DNA from: an uncultured Thermofilaceae archaeon
GTDB lineage: Archaea; Thermoproteota; Thermoprotei; Thermofilales; Thermofilaceae
Assembly: GCA_938036345.1 (NCBI GenBank)
Contig: CALHPJ010000016.1
Span: 1-32,000 of the forward strand
DNA: 32,000 nucleotides
Reading direction: 5' to 3'
Of this stretch, positions 16,473 through 31,285 are shown in pieces; position 1 is the stretch's first letter, and each line of letters begins with the position of its first letter. The notes beneath the pieces were generated by a model, which was not told where the DNA came from, did not search any database, and was given only the letters and a program-made list of their open reading frames with translations. The position numbers were made by a program, and so were the translations under genes.

Positions 16473-16564
16473 GGGCCCGTGGCCTAGCTTGGAAAGGCGT
16501 CGACCCGCGGTGGGGCGCAAGCCTGCGGAGCCGGAGAACCCGGGTTCAAGTCCCGGCGGGCCCG
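16473..16564 (+). tRNA. tRNA-Arg(GCG) with an 18-nt intron in the anticodon stem (between positions 29/30); no encoded CCA
   Basis: Hand fold: GGGCCCG-TG-GCCTAGCTTGGAAAGGC-G-TCG[ACCCGCGGTGGGGCGCAA]GC-CTGCGGA-GCCGG-AGAAC-CCGGGTTCAAGTCCCGG-CGGGCCC-G. The stem UCGGC/GCCGG forms only after the 18 nt are removed. Confidence 0.82.
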
Positions 16565-16610
16565 CTGCACTCGTAATAGCAAGCCCCTAAGCTTGGTTAC
16601 GGCTAAATCG

Positions 16611-17010: not shown

Positions 17011-17106
17011 GCCGGGGTGGCCGAGTGGTCGAAGGCGGCGGGCTGCAGTGGCGGTGTCGTGCGTGGAAACCCGCTACTCACCCGGGTTCGAATCCCGGCC
17101 CCGGCT
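17011..17106 (+). tRNA. tRNA-Cys(GCA) with a 20-nt intron at 37/38; no encoded CCA
   Basis: Hand fold: GCCGGGG-TG-GCCGAGTGGTCGAAGGC-G-GCGGG-CTGCAG[TGGCGGTGTCGTGCGTGGAA]A-CCCGC-TACTCA-CCGGGTTCGAATCCCGG-CCCCGGC-T. Discriminator U73 fits Cys identity. The 6-nt variable loop is slightly unusual. TATA-like TTATAA lies about 25-30 nt upstream. Confidence 0.78.
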
Positions 17107-17195
17107 CTACTCTAGATCGCGCGCTTAGCTTTCTTGCCATAACATTGGCATAAATTTTTAGCTAACCTTATTTCCAGAAGCTCGGGAAATTCTGT

Positions 17196-19174: not shown

Positions 19175-19269
19175 GGGCCCGTGGCCTAGCTTGGAAAGGC
19201 GTCGACCCGCGGTGGGGCGCAAGCCTTCTAAGCCGGAGAACCCGGGTTCAAGTCCCGGCGGGCCCGCCA
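19175..19269 (+). tRNA. tRNA-Arg(UCU) with the same 18-nt intron at 29/30; CCA encoded
   Basis: Identical to 16473-16564 apart from the anticodon loop (CTTCTAA instead of CTGCGGA). Followed directly by CCA at 19267-19269. Confidence 0.82.
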
Positions 19270-19644
19270 CGCCTACAGTGACCGCAAGAAAAATTTTTGA
19301 ATATTTAAGTAAAAAGAAATAACCGAAGTAAATTACTCCTTTCTTTTACTTGGTAAGATTTCCTAACGTATTACGGAAATAATATGCAAATATTACGCAA
19401 ATTGTATTAATATTCTAAATATTATGTTTTTTAATTTATACATTTTATAATTTTATCTAATTTGATTCCTTCAACTAACGATATTTATAAACAAGAGAAA
19501 ACTTTATAGATTAAAGAGGGGCCACGCTGAAATTGCTTTGCAGTAGCAAATCTATTTCTTTTTTTCTTTTTCACAAAAAGTTTAAATTTAGTTCCATTCG
19601 TACACAATTATCAGAGAAGGCGTTATCCAAATGTGGTATCTTGA
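19270..19644. other. AT-rich non-coding spacer (~375 bp) between the 3' ends of two convergent tRNA genes, rich in short inverted and direct repeats
   Basis: By eye about a quarter G+C, versus about half in the flanks. There is no credible ORF. Repeats are detailed in the findings. Confidence 0.8.
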
Positions 19645-19735
19645 AGCCCCGGCCGGGGTTTGAACCCGGGTCCTCCGCCTCTCTGGAACAGCCAGCTTTA
19701 CCAGAGCGGCGCTCTGCCGGCTGAGCTACCGGGGC
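19645..19735 (-). tRNA. tRNA-Thr(GGU) with an 18-nt intron (37/38 by my preferred parse); no encoded CCA
   Basis: Hand fold of the reverse complement: GCCCCGG-TA-GCTCAGCCGGCAGAGC-G-CCGCT-CTGGTA[AAGCTGGCTGTTCCAGAG]A-GGCGG-AGGAC-CCGGGTTCAAACCCCGG-CCGGGGC-T. An alternative splice register inside the 3' stem strand is possible. Confidence 0.82.
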
Positions 19736-19787
19736 CTACTCCCTTTCTCAGGCATGAATTTAAGTTTTTATTGGCAACAATTTGCAG

Positions 19788-26606: not shown

Positions 26607-26643
26607 GCAGCAATGTTTATGAATAACGTAGCGTGATTGCTGT
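26607..26643. promoter_or_regulatory. Inverted repeat bracketing the TATA-like element of the MoxR/vWA operon
   Basis: GCAGCAAT (26607-26614) pairs with ATTGCTGT (26636-26643), 7 Watson-Crick pairs plus one G-T. The 21-nt spacer GTTTATGAATAACGTAGCGTG contains TTTATGAA about 30 nt upstream of ATG 26653. Confidence 0.5.
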
Positions 26644-26652
26644 GGGTAAGCA

Positions 26653-26970
26653 ATGGACCCGTTTATTGAGTTTCTGAAACGGGAGACCTCAAGGGTTAGA
26701 GTGCGGAGGGTTGGCACATCCACCTACCTAGTTGAGGAAGAAAACTCTAAACAAAGAATGCGGAATTTGCCGACAGATTTCATAGACATCCTTTTCCTCC
26801 GTAATGAGCCTGCTGAACAGGTAATCGTCGAAAAAAGTTTAATCAGAGAACTAAGATACAGGTTGGAAGAGCTGGAAAAAGAGACCGCTAAACTTAGGCA
26901 TAGAAATAGAATACTTGAAACTTTATTAGCCATATGTGTTGTTTCAATAATAATTAGTTTATTTTTATGA
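26653..26970 (+). CDS. Tail-anchored coiled-coil protein, hypothetical; first gene of the MoxR/vWA operon
   Basis: 105 aa. Heptad-like LIRELRYRLEELEKETAKLRHRNRILETLL followed by a C-terminal TM segment AICVVSIIISLFL. 16 nt upstream of the AAA+ gene. Confidence 0.55.
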   Translation: MDPFIEFLKRETSRVRVRRVGTSTYLVEEENSKQRMRNLPTDFIDILFLRNEPAEQVIVEKSLIRELRYRLEELEKETAKLRHRNRILETLLAICVVSIIISLFL

Positions 26971-26986
26971 TTGTGGGGTGTAAAAT

Positions 26987-28204
26987 TTGACCACTGGAGT
27001 TAAACAAGATGTGCGTAAATTGGAGGAAGAAATCAAGAAGCGTTTCGTTGGTAACGAGGAGGTCGTCCACGTACTGACGTTGAATCTTCTGCACGAGAGA
27101 TCCACCGCGCTGGTTAGGGCCCCCCGAGGCAGGGGTAAGTCCACCTTAATGCTACTTTTCTTGAAAGGCCTGTTTAACGACGATTACGTAGTTCTCTCAG
27201 GAGCTTCAGAGATAAAGAGGGGGGAAGTAGTTGCTAGGCTTCACATACCCTCACTTGAACGAGAGGGGGTCGAGCAAGTTATCTGGTCTGCCTTTGTTAA
27301 AGCAAGAGGTAAAGGCATAGATGAAGCCAATAGGTTGAATCCGTATACAGCTTCCAACATTTACCACTTACTCCAGTTTGGGGAGGTGTGGGCTTATGGG
27401 CAGCGCTTCGTAGTCGGAGATTTCGTACTCTTCGCTAATGAGAACCCAGCTGATCCAACTACGTTTATCCACCCTCCGCCTTTCTACGATAGGTTCGACG
27501 TAAGCGTTCAGCTCTCCTCTCTAAGCTTAAGCGATAAATTCAGACTTCAGAGTTTGGTGGAAAAGCATGGATCCCTTATAGAGTCGATGCCTCAAGTTAT
27601 GGATTTTGAAACTCTCAGAGAGGCGAGAAAGGAGGTAAGTGAGGTTGAAATCGATGTGGACCTCCGCGCAACGCTTAACGTCCTGGTAAGGGACCTGCAG
27701 GTATGTATAAGAAACAGGGACTTAAGCCGCGTCAAGCCACCAGCGCTCTGCGAGGGATGCCATTTCGTGCACAACGTATGCAGTTCTGTAAGGGAGGGGC
27801 CGAGCGAGAGAGCTATCTTGGTTATGTATAGTCTTCTGAAAGCTAAGGCATGGCTCGATGGTAGCGTGAATGAGGACGACATCTATCGTTTAAGTACCTA
27901 CGTGCTAGCTCATAGGATGGAGCTTGTAAGGCAGGACAGGGGGGTGGAGGAACTCCAGAGATTGCTGAGAAGACAAAGGGAATTTAACGACGAAAGAAGG
28001 TCTAGGAAACAGTGGGCAATACTTGAGAACCTGTATAGGGGCTTTAATAGGGAGCTATACAAGCTCGCCGGAGAGATCGCCGTCGAGGATCTAGTTTTTG
28101 CTGAGGAGCTCATCCGCCTGGAGGCAGATTGGGTTAAAAAAGGGTCGTTAAAGCCAGAGGAAACAATTAGCTCTAGGTTGACTTCAGATGCCGTTAAGTT
28201 ATAA
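26987..28204 (+). CDS. MoxR-like AAA+ ATPase (divergent) with a Cys-cluster insertion and a C-terminal extension
   Basis: Walker A VRAPRGRGKST, Walker B GIDEANRL, sensor-1 region LFANENPADP, FYDRFD, GPSERA and VLAHRM, in the order expected for MoxR/CbbQ-type AAA+. TTG start preceded by GGGGTG. 405 aa. Confidence 0.75.
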   Translation: MTTGVKQDVRKLEEEIKKRFVGNEEVVHVLTLNLLHERSTALVRAPRGRGKSTLMLLFLKGLFNDDYVVLSGASEIKRGEVVARLHIPSLEREGVEQVIWSAFVKARGKGIDEANRLNPYTASNIYHLLQFGEVWAYGQRFVVGDFVLFANENPADPTTFIHPPPFYDRFDVSVQLSSLSLSDKFRLQSLVEKHGSLIESMPQVMDFETLREARKEVSEVEIDVDLRATLNVLVRDLQVCIRNRDLSRVKPPALCEGCHFVHNVCSSVREGPSERAILVMYSLLKAKAWLDGSVNEDDIYRLSTYVLAHRMELVRQDRGVEELQRLLRRQREFNDERRSRKQWAILENLYRGFNRELYKLAGEIAVEDLVFAEELIRLEADWVKKGSLKPEETISSRLTSDAVKL

Positions 28205-29867
28205 AGAGGTAGCAGAACTATTTGAGAGAGCACGCAGCGAGATGTATATTCCACCCATGTCCTCGGACATAGCGATAACCAGGGGGCCAGTGGAGATCGA
28301 GGTGAGGGATAATATTGCCCACTTGAGGATCCCTGAGGAGATACTTTACGACCCGGAGGGGGGACCCATTCTTTTGTGGTACTTTAGGCATAACTTAGCC
28401 CACACCCATTACTGCCCATACAACTTAAGGACGATCCAGACACTCGCTAAAGCGGCTTTCCAGGAAGTAAAAAGCTGGAGCATAGCTCACAATGCCGTTA
28501 GGGTTTTCGCCGACCTGCAGATAGACATGCTATACCTCCCACTTAAGTACGGTCAGGCCCCTCTGCATATCTCTCATGAGTTTGAAGGCAAGCCAAAAGG
28601 TTTAGATGAGTTCCGCTATGCGGCTTACAAGCGCCTTTACAGTAAAATGCTGAGGGCGCATAGAATCGACCCTGATGTCTCCTTCTATGGTACTATAGCT
28701 TCCGAAGTTATCCTGAGCTCGAGATCTTGGATCTCAAAAGTTAAAATCGTAGCGGCTTTGCTAAGGAAGCTACAAACACTTAACAAGCTGAAGAAGCTTG
28801 AGAGTAGTGCTGGGAGAGGTGTTCCGCTGTACGAGGACCTTGAGGCCGACACGCTTGACGAGGCAAGCGTCGCTATGTCTGGAACAAGTAAAGACGAGGC
28901 GAGAGAGCTATATAGGCACTGGATAAAGCATAGAATAGATGTCAAAGAGATCGAGGAGAAGTTCAAAGGTATGGCCAAAGGGGGAGGGGGCGAGAAGGTT
29001 AGCGAGATAGAAGTGAAAGCGGAGAAAGGCACAGGAGAGGAGCCCGAACTACCTAGCACCCTCTCGGGACCACTCCCAAAGCTGAGCGGTGTAGAGGATG
29101 CCATCTGGAAAGCACTGTGGTACAAGGCCAGAGCTCAGGAGCTTGTTATCGAGTATGGGGGCTATCAGAGAGGTGGTACGTGGGCAGTGTATGCTTACCC
29201 AGACCTGTGGCTAGTTGAGGACGATCTAGAGGACCTGGATATAGAGGCAAGCTTGGAAGAGGGGCCGCTAATACCTGAGGAAACTACGTTAAGGGCGGTG
29301 AATCTCCCCTCTCCGGCGGGCGAGACAATCGTACAGGAACGAGTACCTGCCGTCCTCGTAGTACTGGATACGAGCAGGAGCATGCTTGGCGCGGTCGACG
29401 ATGCGGCAATAGCGGCTTTTGCAGCCTACTTAAGCGCTAAGAGGGCTGGAGGGAAGGTAGCGGTCGTAAACTTTTCGACGAAATATGTAGCAGTGGGGTG
29501 GAAAGAGCGGGATTTTTGGAAAGAGCTGGCGCTATCTGTTGCACAGGGCGAACTGACCATACTGCCCTTAGGAGCGATAAAAAGCCTGGTCGGCGAGCTT
29601 GAATACGGGGAATACGCGTTCATAGTGCTTGTCACTGACTGCGGCTGGCAGAACCTCCGAGAGGCCCTGGCTTTCCTTGAAAACTTAGCGTCAAGAGGGC
29701 ACAATATTGTAGTCTTCCACGTAGAGGGGTGGAAGTACCCGCGGAGTGTGGAAGCGGTGTCGAGAATACCCAACTTAACTTTTTACAGGGTAAGAGATCC
29801 CTCACTTCTTCGCTACCTGGTTCTTTCAGAATTAAAGCGCTCTCTTTCCACTTCGGTCACAGGGTAG
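28188..29867 (+). CDS. von Willebrand factor A (vWA) protein with an N-terminal degenerate metallopeptidase-like domain
   Basis: C-terminal vWA domain with MIDAS residues (VLVVLDTSRSM ... NFST ... LVTDCG). The N-terminal ~130 aa carry FRHNLAHTHY and VFADLQID boxes. A Gly/Glu-rich linker is present. The start overlaps the AAA+ gene by 17 nt. 559 aa. Confidence 0.75.
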   Translation: MPLSYKEVAELFERARSEMYIPPMSSDIAITRGPVEIEVRDNIAHLRIPEEILYDPEGGPILLWYFRHNLAHTHYCPYNLRTIQTLAKAAFQEVKSWSIAHNAVRVFADLQIDMLYLPLKYGQAPLHISHEFEGKPKGLDEFRYAAYKRLYSKMLRAHRIDPDVSFYGTIASEVILSSRSWISKVKIVAALLRKLQTLNKLKKLESSAGRGVPLYEDLEADTLDEASVAMSGTSKDEARELYRHWIKHRIDVKEIEEKFKGMAKGGGGEKVSEIEVKAEKGTGEEPELPSTLSGPLPKLSGVEDAIWKALWYKARAQELVIEYGGYQRGGTWAVYAYPDLWLVEDDLEDLDIEASLEEGPLIPEETTLRAVNLPSPAGETIVQERVPAVLVVLDTSRSMLGAVDDAAIAAFAAYLSAKRAGGKVAVVNFSTKYVAVGWKERDFWKELALSVAQGELTILPLGAIKSLVGELEYGEYAFIVLVTDCGWQNLREALAFLENLASRGHNIVVFHVEGWKYPRSVEAVSRIPNLTFYRVRDPSLLRYLVLSELKRSLSTSVTG

Positions 29868-29877
29868 CAGTGCAAGG

Positions 29878-30726
29878 CTAGTGGGTGGATTCCTCCAGTC
29901 CTAACTGGTGCTCTACTCCAAGTTTCCTGGCTATTTCCCTCCACTTCATTAGGGCTTTATCTTCGTCAAGAGCTTTATCCACTTCATACTCTTTCTTTAG
30001 AGCTTCCACCAACTCCTCTGCCAGGCTTTGCGGCGCTTTATCGAGTAGCTCTCTAGCCTTCTCCAGCTCATTATTTTGGACCAACTTCAGAAAGTACTGC
30101 TTGAGGTTAACTATCCTTACCTTACCCCCCTCTCTAATCATGGCTAAACCCGAATCGTAGTCAACTTCCACCTTAACTTCCTCTTTATGTTGCCTGAGCT
30201 GTTCAATGGCCTCTCTAGAAATGATTTTATCTAAACCGTATACTGAGGCGGCCTTCTCTACTTTTTCTAAAGCTTTCCTCCCCATGCTGAGTATCTCCAT
30301 TAGATCGTCAGGCCCTAAAGGGAGCTCGTAAGTTTTCCCCCCTACAACTAGGGTAGCCTTTAGACCTCTAACATTGCTTGTAGGCATTCTCACGTCTAGG
30401 AAACCGTCGTATGTATATATGGGAATCAACTCCCCTTCTCCATCCGGAAAAACCACTTTTGCTCCTTCGTCCCACAACCTTGCGCTCGTCTCGCCTAACA
30501 CTAAGTGTCTACCGCTTTCTAAAACTGCCGCGCTAAAAATCTTGGCTAGGTTGCTAGCGATACCCTCAACATCGCCGTAGACGTCGTAAATCCTTAAGCC
30601 AATCCATCCTTTCAATGTCTTTATTTCAACCTCTCCGACCACCCTTCTGACAACTAACCCCAGCGACGTCACAGTTTTTATGACCTCCTCCTCCGGAATT
30701 TCTCGAGCTACGCCAATCCACGCCAA
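29878..30726 (-). CDS. Hypothetical protein, 282 aa (beta-rich N-terminal half, helical Glu/Lys-rich C-terminal half)
   Basis: Long ORF with ordinary codon composition. Convergent with the vWA gene, with stops only 10 nt apart. No family recognised. Confidence 0.55.
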   Translation of the reverse strand: MAWIGVAREIPEEEVIKTVTSLGLVVRRVVGEVEIKTLKGWIGLRIYDVYGDVEGIASNLAKIFSAAVLESGRHLVLGETSARLWDEGAKVVFPDGEGELIPIYTYDGFLDVRMPTSNVRGLKATLVVGGKTYELPLGPDDLMEILSMGRKALEKVEKAASVYGLDKIISREAIEQLRQHKEEVKVEVDYDSGLAMIREGGKVRIVNLKQYFLKLVQNNELEKARELLDKAPQSLAEELVEALKKEYEVDKALDEDKALMKWREIARKLGVEHQLGLEESTH

Positions 30727-30817: not shown

Positions 30818-31152
30818 TTGAGGCCGCTCGCTGCTTTGAGGGAATTACCCGACCAGTCTTGACGGTCTAAGAGTTAGTGCAAGAGGCCAAAAATAGCATC
30901 AAATACGTACCGTAACCTCAGAGAAAGCCCGGAGAAAAGCTGGAAAGGTAAAACACGGTAGGGTTCACATTAGAGTGCGATGGGGGAAAAGAAAAGTGCT
31001 GGAGATCACTAAGCGCCGTTTAAGGGAACTAGGCTGGTTTGCCGCGAACTTCTGGTCGAGCAATTGCTTCACAAGCTATCAGCATAAACTTAGCGAAAGG
31101 CCAGATCACGAGTTCCCATCCGGCGAAGTAGTGGCTAAGCAGTGGTGGGCAA
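30818..31152 (+). ncRNA. rnpB: Candidate RNase P RNA (ends approximate)
   Basis: CR-I-like CAGAGAAAGCCCGGAG at 30918-30934. CR-IV/CR-V-like GGCCAGATCACGAGTTCCC...GAAGTAGTGGCTAAGC at 31099-31140. A P2-like pairing joins GCTGCTT (30830-30836) and AAGCAGT (31137-31143). A P3-like closing pair joins TGAGG (30837-30841) and CCTCA (30916-30920), directly before the CR-I-like box. A long-range helix joins 31033-31044 and 31093-31104. TATA-like CTTTTAAC lies at 30783-30790. The only ORF here is one I consider spurious. Confidence 0.5.
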
Positions 31153-31172
31153 ATTCTAAAACAAATCGATGG

Positions 31173-31285
31173 TGGTGCCGGGGCCGGGACTTGAACCCGG
31201 GACCTCCCGGTATCTTCCTAGGTCTTTAGTCTTCAGCCGGGCGCTGTTGGGTCTTTCATGGCACTCCCAGCTGAGCTACCCCGGC
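31173..31285 (-). tRNA. tRNA-Phe(GAA) with two introns (18 nt in the D-stem at 22/23; 19 nt at 37/38); CCA encoded
   Basis: Hand fold of the reverse complement: GCCGGGG-TA-GCTC-AGCTGGGA-G[TGCCATGAAAGACCCAAC]AGC-G-CCCGG-CTGAAG[ACTAAAGACCTAGGAAGAT]A-CCGGG-AGGTC-CCGGGTTCAAGTCCCGG-CCCCGGC-A-CCA. 113 nt = 76 + 18 + 19. Confidence 0.82.

Follow-up and report, generated by a model that had tools for sequence, protein, structure and literature searches.

The window analyzed here is a stretch of 32,000 nucleotides (nt) of genomic DNA from an uncultured Thermofilaceae archaeon (contig CALHPJ010000016.1). An open reading frame (ORF) search of the window finds three tightly packed genes on the plus strand and a convergent gene on the minus strand. 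In order, the plus-strand genes encode a small tail-anchored coiled-coil protein (g1), a MoxR-class AAA+ ATPase with a four-cysteine insertion in its lid (g2), and a vWA protein with a zincin-related N-terminal head (g3); the convergent gene (g4) encodes a protein of 282 amino acids (aa). A gap of 16 nt separates g1 from g2, g2 and g3 overlap by 17 nt, and the stop codons of g3 and g4 lie 10 nt apart. Positions of all features are collected in Table 1. The TATA-like box 5' of g1 is a possible archaeal promoter for the operon; sigma-70 scans are inapplicable to archaea. The TTG start of g2 is preceded by a Shine-Dalgarno-like run, GGGGTG. The initial annotation of this DNA described an uncharacterized archaeal operon in which a MoxR-like AAA+/vWA pair is joined by a coiled-coil protein with a tail anchor. 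That description is borne out, and the sequence statements made in it all hold when re-checked.

Table 1. Features of the operon and the adjoining convergent gene, in coordinates of the 32,000-nt window
Feature	Position (nt)	Strand	Basis or remark
TATA-like box, TTTATGAA	26616-26623	+	37 nt 5' of g1 start; read from sequence
g1, tail-anchored protein, 105 aa	26653-26970	+	ORF; conserved upstream gene in 73 loci
g1 transmembrane helix, residues 87-104, ILETLLAICVVSIIISLF	26911-26964	+	18-residue hydrophobic stretch
g2, MoxR-class AAA+ ATPase, 405 aa, TTG start	26987-28204	+	motifs, Pfam, profile
g2 Walker A, APRGRGKS, residues 45-52	27119-27142	+	motif; K51/S52
g2 Walker B, GIDEANR, residues 110-116	27314-27334	+	motif; D112/E113
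g2 sensor 1, ANENP, residues 150-154	27434-27448	+	motif; N153
g2 Arg-finger region, FYDRFD, residues 166-171	27482-27499	+	motif; R169
g2 Cys4(His) lid insertion, C240-x14-C255-x2-C258(H259)-x6-C265	27704-27781	+	conserved Cys, just before sensor 2
g2 sensor 2, GPSERA, residues 271-276	27797-27814	+	motif; R275
g2 C-terminal tail, 91 aa, helical, charge-rich, 13 Arg	27929-28201	+	composition; triad-type ATPase only
g3, vWA protein, 559 aa	28188-29867	+	ORF, AlphaFold model
g3 N-terminal head, residues 1-264	28188-28979	+	AlphaFold pLDDT > 90; profile homology
g3 H68-N-L-A-H72-T-H74-Y-C76	28389-28415	+	FRHNLAHTHY box
g3 F-A-D109-L-Q-I-D113	28503-28526	+	VFADLQID box, helical bundle
g3 linker, residues 265-387	28980-29348	+	AlphaFold model, conservation
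g3 conserved acidic linker segment, residues 337-370, YPDLWLVEDDLEDLDIEASLEEGPLIPEETTLRA (YPDLWLVEDDLEDLDIEASLEEGPLIPEETTL)	29196-29297	+	conservation
g3 vWA domain, residues 388-555	29349-29867	+	AlphaFold model, pLDDT ~90
g3 DTSRS of the vWA domain	29367-29381	+	motif
g4, convergent protein, 282 aa	29878-30726	-	neighbor, not module component

A three-gene unit in four archaeal lineages

When one genome of each GTDB species was scanned, 80 loci were recovered, all from metagenome-assembled genomes (MAGs) of the lineages that carry the triad: Thermofilaceae, Bathyarchaeia, Brockarchaeota and Nitrososphaerota. The order g1, AAA+ gene, vWA gene on one strand recurs in about 70 of 84 loci across these four lineages. 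In 73 loci the gene immediately preceding the AAA+ gene, in the same orientation, belongs to the g1 family, and four more loci have a divergent tail-anchored equivalent of 95 aa. The vWA gene follows the ATPase gene directly in 69 of the 84 loci and one gene away in three others. Intergenic gaps within the triad are small or negative throughout, from about -64 to +25 nt, and most of the loci without a complete triad are interrupted by contig ends. About 70 other genomes keep the three plus-strand genes together, which argues that their arrangement is not due to chance; their orthologs are strongly syntenic across several classes of Thermoproteota, a result on which the initial annotation had made its finding depend.

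The conserved unit is three genes, not the four that the initial annotation had grouped together. Of 85 loci only 8, each from Thermofilaceae, have g4 next to the operon, and elsewhere its position is taken by EF-2, rhomboid or other genes. The flanks on both sides of the triad depend on lineage and hold housekeeping genes, among them CarS, AsnC, XPD helicase, a ThiL-like gene, HMG-CoA reductase, EF-2 and nitrilase. A functional tie to CarS, SpoIIM, the ThiL-like gene, HMG-CoA reductase or EF-2 was considered and rejected, as none of these is conserved across lineages.

Thermofilaceae ATPases are 56-60% identical to those of Bathyarchaeia, Brockarchaeota and Nitrososphaerota. Identity of the vWA adaptors is only 33-40% when Thermofilaceae are compared with Nitrososphaerota and Bathyarchaeia MAGs, so the two partner proteins differ greatly in evolutionary rate. 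The degree of constraint on the ATPase, sustained between classes, fits a housekeeping role.

The ATPase, the membrane anchor and the vWA adaptor

The residues that define the nucleotide-binding and sensor motifs of g2 (K51/S52, D112/E113, N153, R169 and R275) are invariant, together with the four lid cysteines, in alignments of 25 and of 121 homologs. The protein looks catalytically competent and should hydrolyze ATP. Walker A and Walker B are 58 residues apart, which leaves room for a helix-2 insert. Pfam model AAA_lid_2 matches g2 with 25 bits (cut-off 22.7); AAA_5 reaches 19.8 bits, just below its cut-off of 22, yet matches 24 of 25 family members. When the family profile is searched against PDB, the MoxR protein 2r44 is the only significant solved relative (E 3.7e-7), while the g2 sequence alone finds nothing useful there. 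NCBIfam gives nothing significant for g2, the only match being one of 14 bits to the lid of the cobaltochelatase model TIGR02442.

The histidine of the Cys4(His) insertion, H259, is nearly invariant in the sets of 25 and of 121 homologs, and the four cysteines and the histidine are invariant also in a sister family of long-form ATPases, described below, whose members are only 27-32% identical. Invariance in both groups marks the insertion as an old, selected feature. The cluster is probably a metal site, for which zinc and iron-sulfur are indistinguishable by sequence.

The C-terminal tail of g2 has its own conserved positions (R337, R340, W343, Y358, E367, D368, F371-E374 and W382). It may serve to dock g1. 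The one hint is co-variation: docking is suggested because the sister family, which has no g1, carries an unrelated C-terminal extension instead.

The g1 protein has a conserved N-terminal F..FLE motif, a leucine-heptad coiled coil at about residues 62-90, and a predicted transmembrane (TM) helix with a mean Kyte-Doolittle hydropathy of 2.63 and a single residue after it. A C-terminal hydrophobic 18-mer is found in 72 of 74 g1 homologs, with a median of 3 and at most 11 residues following it. By its sequence g1 would be a tail-anchored protein, in which the only TM helix ends the chain and no N-terminal signal is present. Searches of Pfam, NCBIfam and PADLOC give no significant match for it. 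A simple hydropathy screen of the partner families finds a hydrophobic segment in no AAA+ family member and in only 3 of 73 vWA family members.

The AlphaFold model of g3 (mean predicted local distance difference test score, pLDDT, 81) consists of a head, a linker and a vWA domain. The metal-ion-dependent adhesion site (MIDAS) of the vWA domain is intact, comprising D394, S396, S398, T457 and D484; in an alignment of 25 sequences the first three are invariant and the last two at least 90% conserved. Foldseek against PDB returns 31 vWA matches with E at or below 1e-3. The best is NorD in the NorQD complex (9qhe_G, E 7e-5), followed by the MIDAS domain of MDN1/Rea1, BatA/BatB and ArnB. A sequence-profile search of PDB also matches ArnB (8s05, E 6.5e-4), and Pfam model VWA_2 matches below threshold, while NCBIfam yields nothing significant for g3. 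The affinity of g2 to MoxR proteins in Pfam and profile searches, taken with the vWA fold of g3, identifies g2 and g3 as a genuine MoxR-vWA pair.

Within the linker of g3, residues 265-283 and 325-384 are predicted to be disordered, with pLDDT of 33-38 in the second region, and a helix at 302-325 is modeled confidently and is conserved, with W307, W311 and A316 invariant. The segment at residues 337-370 falls in the second region. Acidic residues make up 12 of its 34 positions, and Y337, W341, D345, L350, D351, E358, G359 and E364 are invariant. The sister family has a counterpart of this segment, W.R.GDP.EELD...IP..TT.KW. In g3 the segment at 337-370 is the best candidate for an element that engages the ATPase ring or occupies the MIDAS.

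The g3 head and its HExxH relatives

The head of g3 folds, in order, as a helix, a three-stranded sheet, a helix that bears H68 and H72, and a helical bundle with the FAD box. The FRHNLAHTHY and VFADLQID boxes fall in the best-conserved block of the family. R67, H68, L70, H72 and H74 are invariant in the 25-sequence alignment, and C76 is invariant in a 12-sequence set and nearly so in the larger one. Across 70 triad-type g3 orthologs from the genome scan, H68, H72 and H74 do not change and C76 almost never does. Residue 69, the position of the catalytic glutamate in an HExxH motif, behaves differently. It is Glu in 37 of the 70 orthologs and T, N, D, I, Q, Y, S, H, L, V or A in the rest; Thermofilaceae copies all have N, D or H there and keep the three histidines, the cysteine and the Asp of the FAD box. 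This pattern implies that the ancestral motif, as judged from the alignments, is RHE[LIV]xHxH[YH]CPYD, and that its glutamate has been lost several times. The view that the whole family lacks the glutamate, which 2 Glu among the 25 sequences of the first alignment had suggested, was overturned by the wider genome sample; the word-indexed homolog search behind that alignment was biased to close relatives. The "inactivated peptidase" head of the initial annotation is therefore right for the window genome, where the motif reads HNxxH, and wrong as a family trait.

A profile of the head alone was searched against 1.84 billion representative proteins. After members of its own family it returns about 28 proteins of 470-690 aa, with E from 5e-9 to 1e-3. 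These share the head-linker-vWA layout and have a canonical HExxH motif (e.g. RHELGHYVVCPYD) followed by N.FAD..VD; HExxH is present in all 18 proteins of this sister family that were examined. Alignment of the g3 heads to the sister-family heads by hhalign gives a probability of 99.4% (E 3.8e-21, 196 columns), in which H68, N69 and H72 fall on H, E and H of the motif and D109 falls on an invariant Asp. That Asp, about 36 residues downstream, is a plausible candidate for a third metal ligand.

The likeness to HExxH heads of MoxR-associated vWA proteins that the initial annotation had seen is thus upheld, N69 aligning with the glutamate, although not in the form of DUF2201_N. Assignment of the head to DUF2201_N (PF13203), a putative metallopeptidase domain of COG3864-type proteins, was rejected: with E allowed up to 10, neither g3 nor any of 10 sister-family proteins and 13 isolated heads is matched by the model. 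A single sister-family protein gives a weak DUF2201 match (E 0.0067). Proteins that combine DUF2201_N and DUF2201 resemble the triad in concept, since they unite an HExxH head with a vWA-like domain and are encoded beside a MoxR ATPase, but the triad matches neither PF13203 nor PF09967.

Where genomic context is readable, the HExxH relatives are encoded directly downstream of a MoxR ATPase of 500-630 aa with the Cys4 lid, the core of which is 32% identical to g2 (E 3e-38). A metagenome scan with these ATPases yields 80 further loci. The ATPase-vWA gene pair is intact in more than 50 of them, and none of the 80 has the tail-anchored small gene. Flanking genes reflect lineage synteny (GatC, HAD, peroxiredoxin, PAS kinase). 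The vWA domains of the sister family pass the cut-off of Pfam model VWA_CoxE, which g3 of the window does not match.

In summary of the comparison, the sister family (e.g. L085, L088, L089 and L090-L168 in our locus numbering) shares with the triad a homologous ATPase core, the Cys4(His) cluster, the three-part adaptor and the acidic linker motif. It differs in always having HExxH, in lacking g1, and in an ATPase C-terminus that is longer and different; it is itself uncharacterized and unnamed. The shared ATPase, head and linker make the operon of the window one branch of a broader archaeal group of Cys4-lid MoxR and zincin-vWA pairs. Judging from these alignments, the triad is set apart within it by having a membrane anchor and a short ATPase tail, and by a head that has degenerated in some lineages.

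Genes for SMC and ScpB adjoin the sister-family pair in 9 of about 80 loci, in two arrangements: on the same strand in L085 and L090, and convergent in L088, L131, L135, L143, L159, L161 and L164. This adjacency could be lineage synteny or could reflect a link to chromosome organization. A homolog of the HExxH-vWA protein, P0245, is encoded at 6001-7668 of L086 (JGI 3300041086, 102 kb), a virus-like contig with many small unannotated ORFs, and has no adjacent AAA+ gene.

Structural comparison of the head with known folds leans to zincins, through matches that are weak and not significant. The Foldseek list from PDB consists mostly of zincins: MATCAP, M1/M61 peptidases, the minigluzincins abylysin and jannalysin, HtpX and ZMPSTE24. 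The two minigluzincins match with probability 0.82-0.84 and a root-mean-square deviation of 3-4 Å over about 70 columns. Among viral models in BFVD, M48, SprT and lethal-factor-like peptidases are matched with E from 3e-3 to 1. The head matches no Pfam model, no peptidase model there rises above threshold, and a profile of HExxH heads finds nothing useful in PDB.

The head alone (28188-29177, model m2c04cb5421ff) also weakly matches, in BFVD, the N-termini of phage and haloarchaeal-virus proteins labeled "VWFA domain containing" or CobT-like, with E from 3e-3 to 8e-2 and probability up to 1.0. These matches hint that CobT-type adaptors may share a head of the g3 type.

Since many lineages do without the glutamate but keep the metal ligands, what is essential in the head is more likely the binding of a metal or a substrate than cleavage. 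In Thermofilaceae the head is most likely non-proteolytic, serving to bind metal or substrate. In orthologs that retain the glutamate it may cleave a client.

A probable membrane-tethered remodeling machine and its alternatives

We consider it probable, though well short of certain, that the products of the three genes make up a MoxR-vWA machine that is held at the membrane on its cytoplasmic side and acts in the manner of NorQD as a protein remodeler or maturation factor. By analogy with NorQ and NorD, g2 would form a hexamer, and one g3 would dock on its ring, using for this its vWA domain together with the conserved acidic segment of the linker. The MIDAS of g3 would capture a surface carboxylate of the client, and the N-terminal domain would take hold a second time, either of the client or of an ATPase lid. 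ATP hydrolysis would then twist and stretch the linker, so that the client is opened or matured. The g1 protein would hold the complex at the membrane, possibly through the triad-specific tail of g2; such a tether suggests that the client is membrane-associated.

The template for such a machine is NorQD, in which the vWA domain and its finger sit in the ring pore, the N-domain rests on the ATPase lid, and ATP-driven rotation stretches an essential, structurally unresolved linker while the MIDAS and the N-domain grip the membrane-bound client (PMC9976466, PMC13036017). NorQ, of the CGN subfamily, and NorD insert FeB into cNOR (PDB 9qhd, 9qhe, 9qhg). As in the triad, the MoxR gene adjoins the gene for the vWA protein, and NorD, the best solved match of the g3 vWA domain, likewise has an N-domain, a long flexible linker and a C-terminal MIDAS vWA domain. 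Unlike NorQ/NorD, the triad has no nor genes nearby and no NCBIfam NorQ or NorD match, and it adds the Cys4 lid insertion, the 91-aa ATPase tail, the zincin-related head and a separate tail-anchored subunit.

The characterized MoxR subfamilies RavA, CGN (NorQ/CbbQ/GvpN) and MRP provide no curated-model match, and the genes around the operon include no nor, cbb, gvp, cad or DUF58/Bat genes. By NCBIfam and gene neighborhood, then, the pair matches no characterized MoxR subfamily or known client, in agreement with the initial annotation, which had called the operon uncharacterized. By analogy, the triad would work like NorQD, CbbQO or CoxDE, while belonging to none of the characterized subfamilies tested. 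An existing description of the archaeal triad was not found in the literature searched, the coverage of which was partial.

Several observations weigh against the remodeling machine. The contacts among g1, g2 and g3, the hexamer and the membrane localization are drawn from analogy. The vWA model of g3 shows no obvious long "finger" insertion such as NorD has. Three loci from "Thermoproteales/Thermoprotei" MAGs (L011, L026 and L028) have g1 and the ATPase followed by no vWA gene, the partner of which may be encoded elsewhere or lost. Clustering of all ORFs of the 85 loci into gene families finds no further family conserved beside the triad across lineages, and thus no conserved neighbor that points to a client. 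Foldseek finds no significant zincin match for the head in PDB, the best E being 0.057. Finally, loss of the glutamate is no proof of lost activity, since the invariant H74 could in principle substitute for it.

This last point bears on the strongest alternative, a split, membrane-tethered, ATP-dependent metalloprotease similar to FtsH, in which the AAA+ protein unfolds or extracts the client, the MIDAS captures it and the HExxH(xH) head cleaves it. The Thermofilaceae copy would then be a degenerate pseudo-protease, or would be active through H74 or another base. The motif itself, present in 18 of 18 sister-family proteins and 37 of 70 orthologs, speaks for this alternative, as do the invariant Asp of the FAD box as candidate third ligand, the repeated appearance of zincins (M48/HtpX, minigluzincins, SprT, MATCAP, M1/M61) among weak Foldseek and Pfam matches, and the joint encoding of an AAA+ protein, an HExxH domain and a membrane anchor, a combination found also in FtsH. 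To our knowledge FtsH is generally absent from archaea. Against a split protease, the window has Asn in place of the catalytic Glu, and in other lineages too the gene has been kept while Glu gave way to other residues, 11 different ones in all, so that the function for which the gene is indispensable cannot be proteolysis. None of the zincin matches is significant, nor does any Pfam peptidase model score above threshold. The triad differs from FtsH in consisting of three polypeptides, in an ATPase of the MoxR class rather than the classic AAA clade, in its vWA/MIDAS adaptor and in the absence of the glutamate in the window, and Pfam and NCBIfam give it no match to FtsH or M41. The characterized MoxR ATPases that we know of remodel their clients rather than thread them. 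We therefore regard a split protease as unlikely, if still worth entertaining. The same low chance applies to its extended version, in which the triad with its HExxH orthologs would be a split AAA+ metalloprotease and do the work of FtsH in archaea, with a MoxR motor, a vWA/MIDAS adaptor that captures substrate and bears a new HExxHxH zincin head, and a tail-anchored subunit; the Cys4 cluster of the ATPase lid, possibly Fe-S, would act as a redox or metal switch, and the Thermofilaceae form would be a non-catalytic pseudo-protease.

A second alternative, for which we see only a slim chance, is a metal-cofactor insertion or chelatase-like system comparable to CobS/CobT, BchI/BchD, CoxD/CoxE or NorQ/NorD, in which a His3Cys head and the Cys4 lid would deliver metal to a metalloenzyme. 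Residues of metal-ligand type are conserved in both g2 and g3 and are kept even where the glutamate is lost; the closest solved vWA domain is that of NorD, and sister-family vWA domains score above the VWA_CoxE cut-off. The lid match to cobaltochelatase TIGR02442 and the similarity of the N-domain to the N-termini of viral CobT-like and VWFA proteins, both weak, point the same way. CoxD and CoxE, a MoxR protein of the APE2220 subfamily and its vWA partner, mature the CuSMoO2 cluster of CO dehydrogenase (PMC3893208). They resemble the triad as a pair of a MoxR protein and a MIDAS-vWA protein that acts in metal-centre maturation (PMC3893208), but g3 has no VWA_CoxE match and the triad no cox genes nearby; the VWA_CoxE matches of the sister family give the one indirect hint of an affinity to the APE2220 or APE0892 subfamilies. 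More generally, the operon shows no conserved association with cobalamin, tetrapyrrole, cox, nor or other metalloenzyme genes, and the chelatase-related matches all lie far below family thresholds. This alternative also overlaps the remodeling machine, from which it differs only in naming the outcome of remodeling.

The third alternative, an NTP-dependent MoxR-vWA conflict or defense system with g4 as effector, draws on the MoxR-vWA cores that ternary conflict systems employ (Kaur et al. 2020; PMC7159879), on a weak Pfam bpMoxR match of g2 (15 bits, E 0.01) and on the unannotated g4 abutting the operon, but it is very improbable and already largely refuted: none of the four proteins has a significant PADLOC match (the only one listed is Cas4 on g2, E 0.019), phage records give no match, g4 has the narrow distribution given above, the flanks (CarS, AsnC, XPD, EF-2, ThiL-like, HMG-CoA reductase) have housekeeping functions and a synteny that is stable within each lineage, no position is occupied by variable effectors, and the ATPase is very highly conserved. 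We reject a role as a defense system on these grounds, and with it the conflict-system reading that the initial annotation had raised.

The g4 family itself comprises proteins of 273-305 aa in 40 clusters, all from Thermofilaceae or Thermoprotei, and searches of Pfam, NCBIfam, PADLOC and PDB with g4 yield nothing significant. It looks like a synteny neighbor of the operon, in the same way as the CarS-AsnC-XPD block upstream.

Elsewhere in the window are tRNA genes. Four, at 16473-16565, 17011-17107, 19175-19269 and 19643-19736, are 92-97 nt long and of the intron-bearing archaeal type. ARAGORN calls two of these as Pro(CGG) and one with a 4-base anticodon, probably artefacts of the introns. 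A fifth, also intron-bearing, lies at 31176-31285 on the minus strand (110 nt); it scores 46.1 bits against the Rfam tRNA model in a local E-value scan, was missed by ARAGORN and by the gathering-threshold scan of the whole window, and underlies a spurious 84-aa ORF at 30975-31229.

MoxR-vWA pairs are widespread, and few of them (NorQD, CbbQO, RavA-ViaA, CoxDE) have known clients or mechanisms. The triad spans several classes of Thermoproteota, and its unusually constrained ATPase suggests an important, unstudied housekeeping role. We know of no other MoxR system described as having four invariant cysteines that form a probable metal site in the lid, a tail-anchored protein as a subunit of its own, or a head of an HExxH family outside Pfam. 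Repeated loss of the glutamate with retention of all metal ligands amounts to a natural experiment that tells which function of the head is essential. If the forms with the glutamate are active proteases, archaea without FtsH would own a modular equivalent of it.

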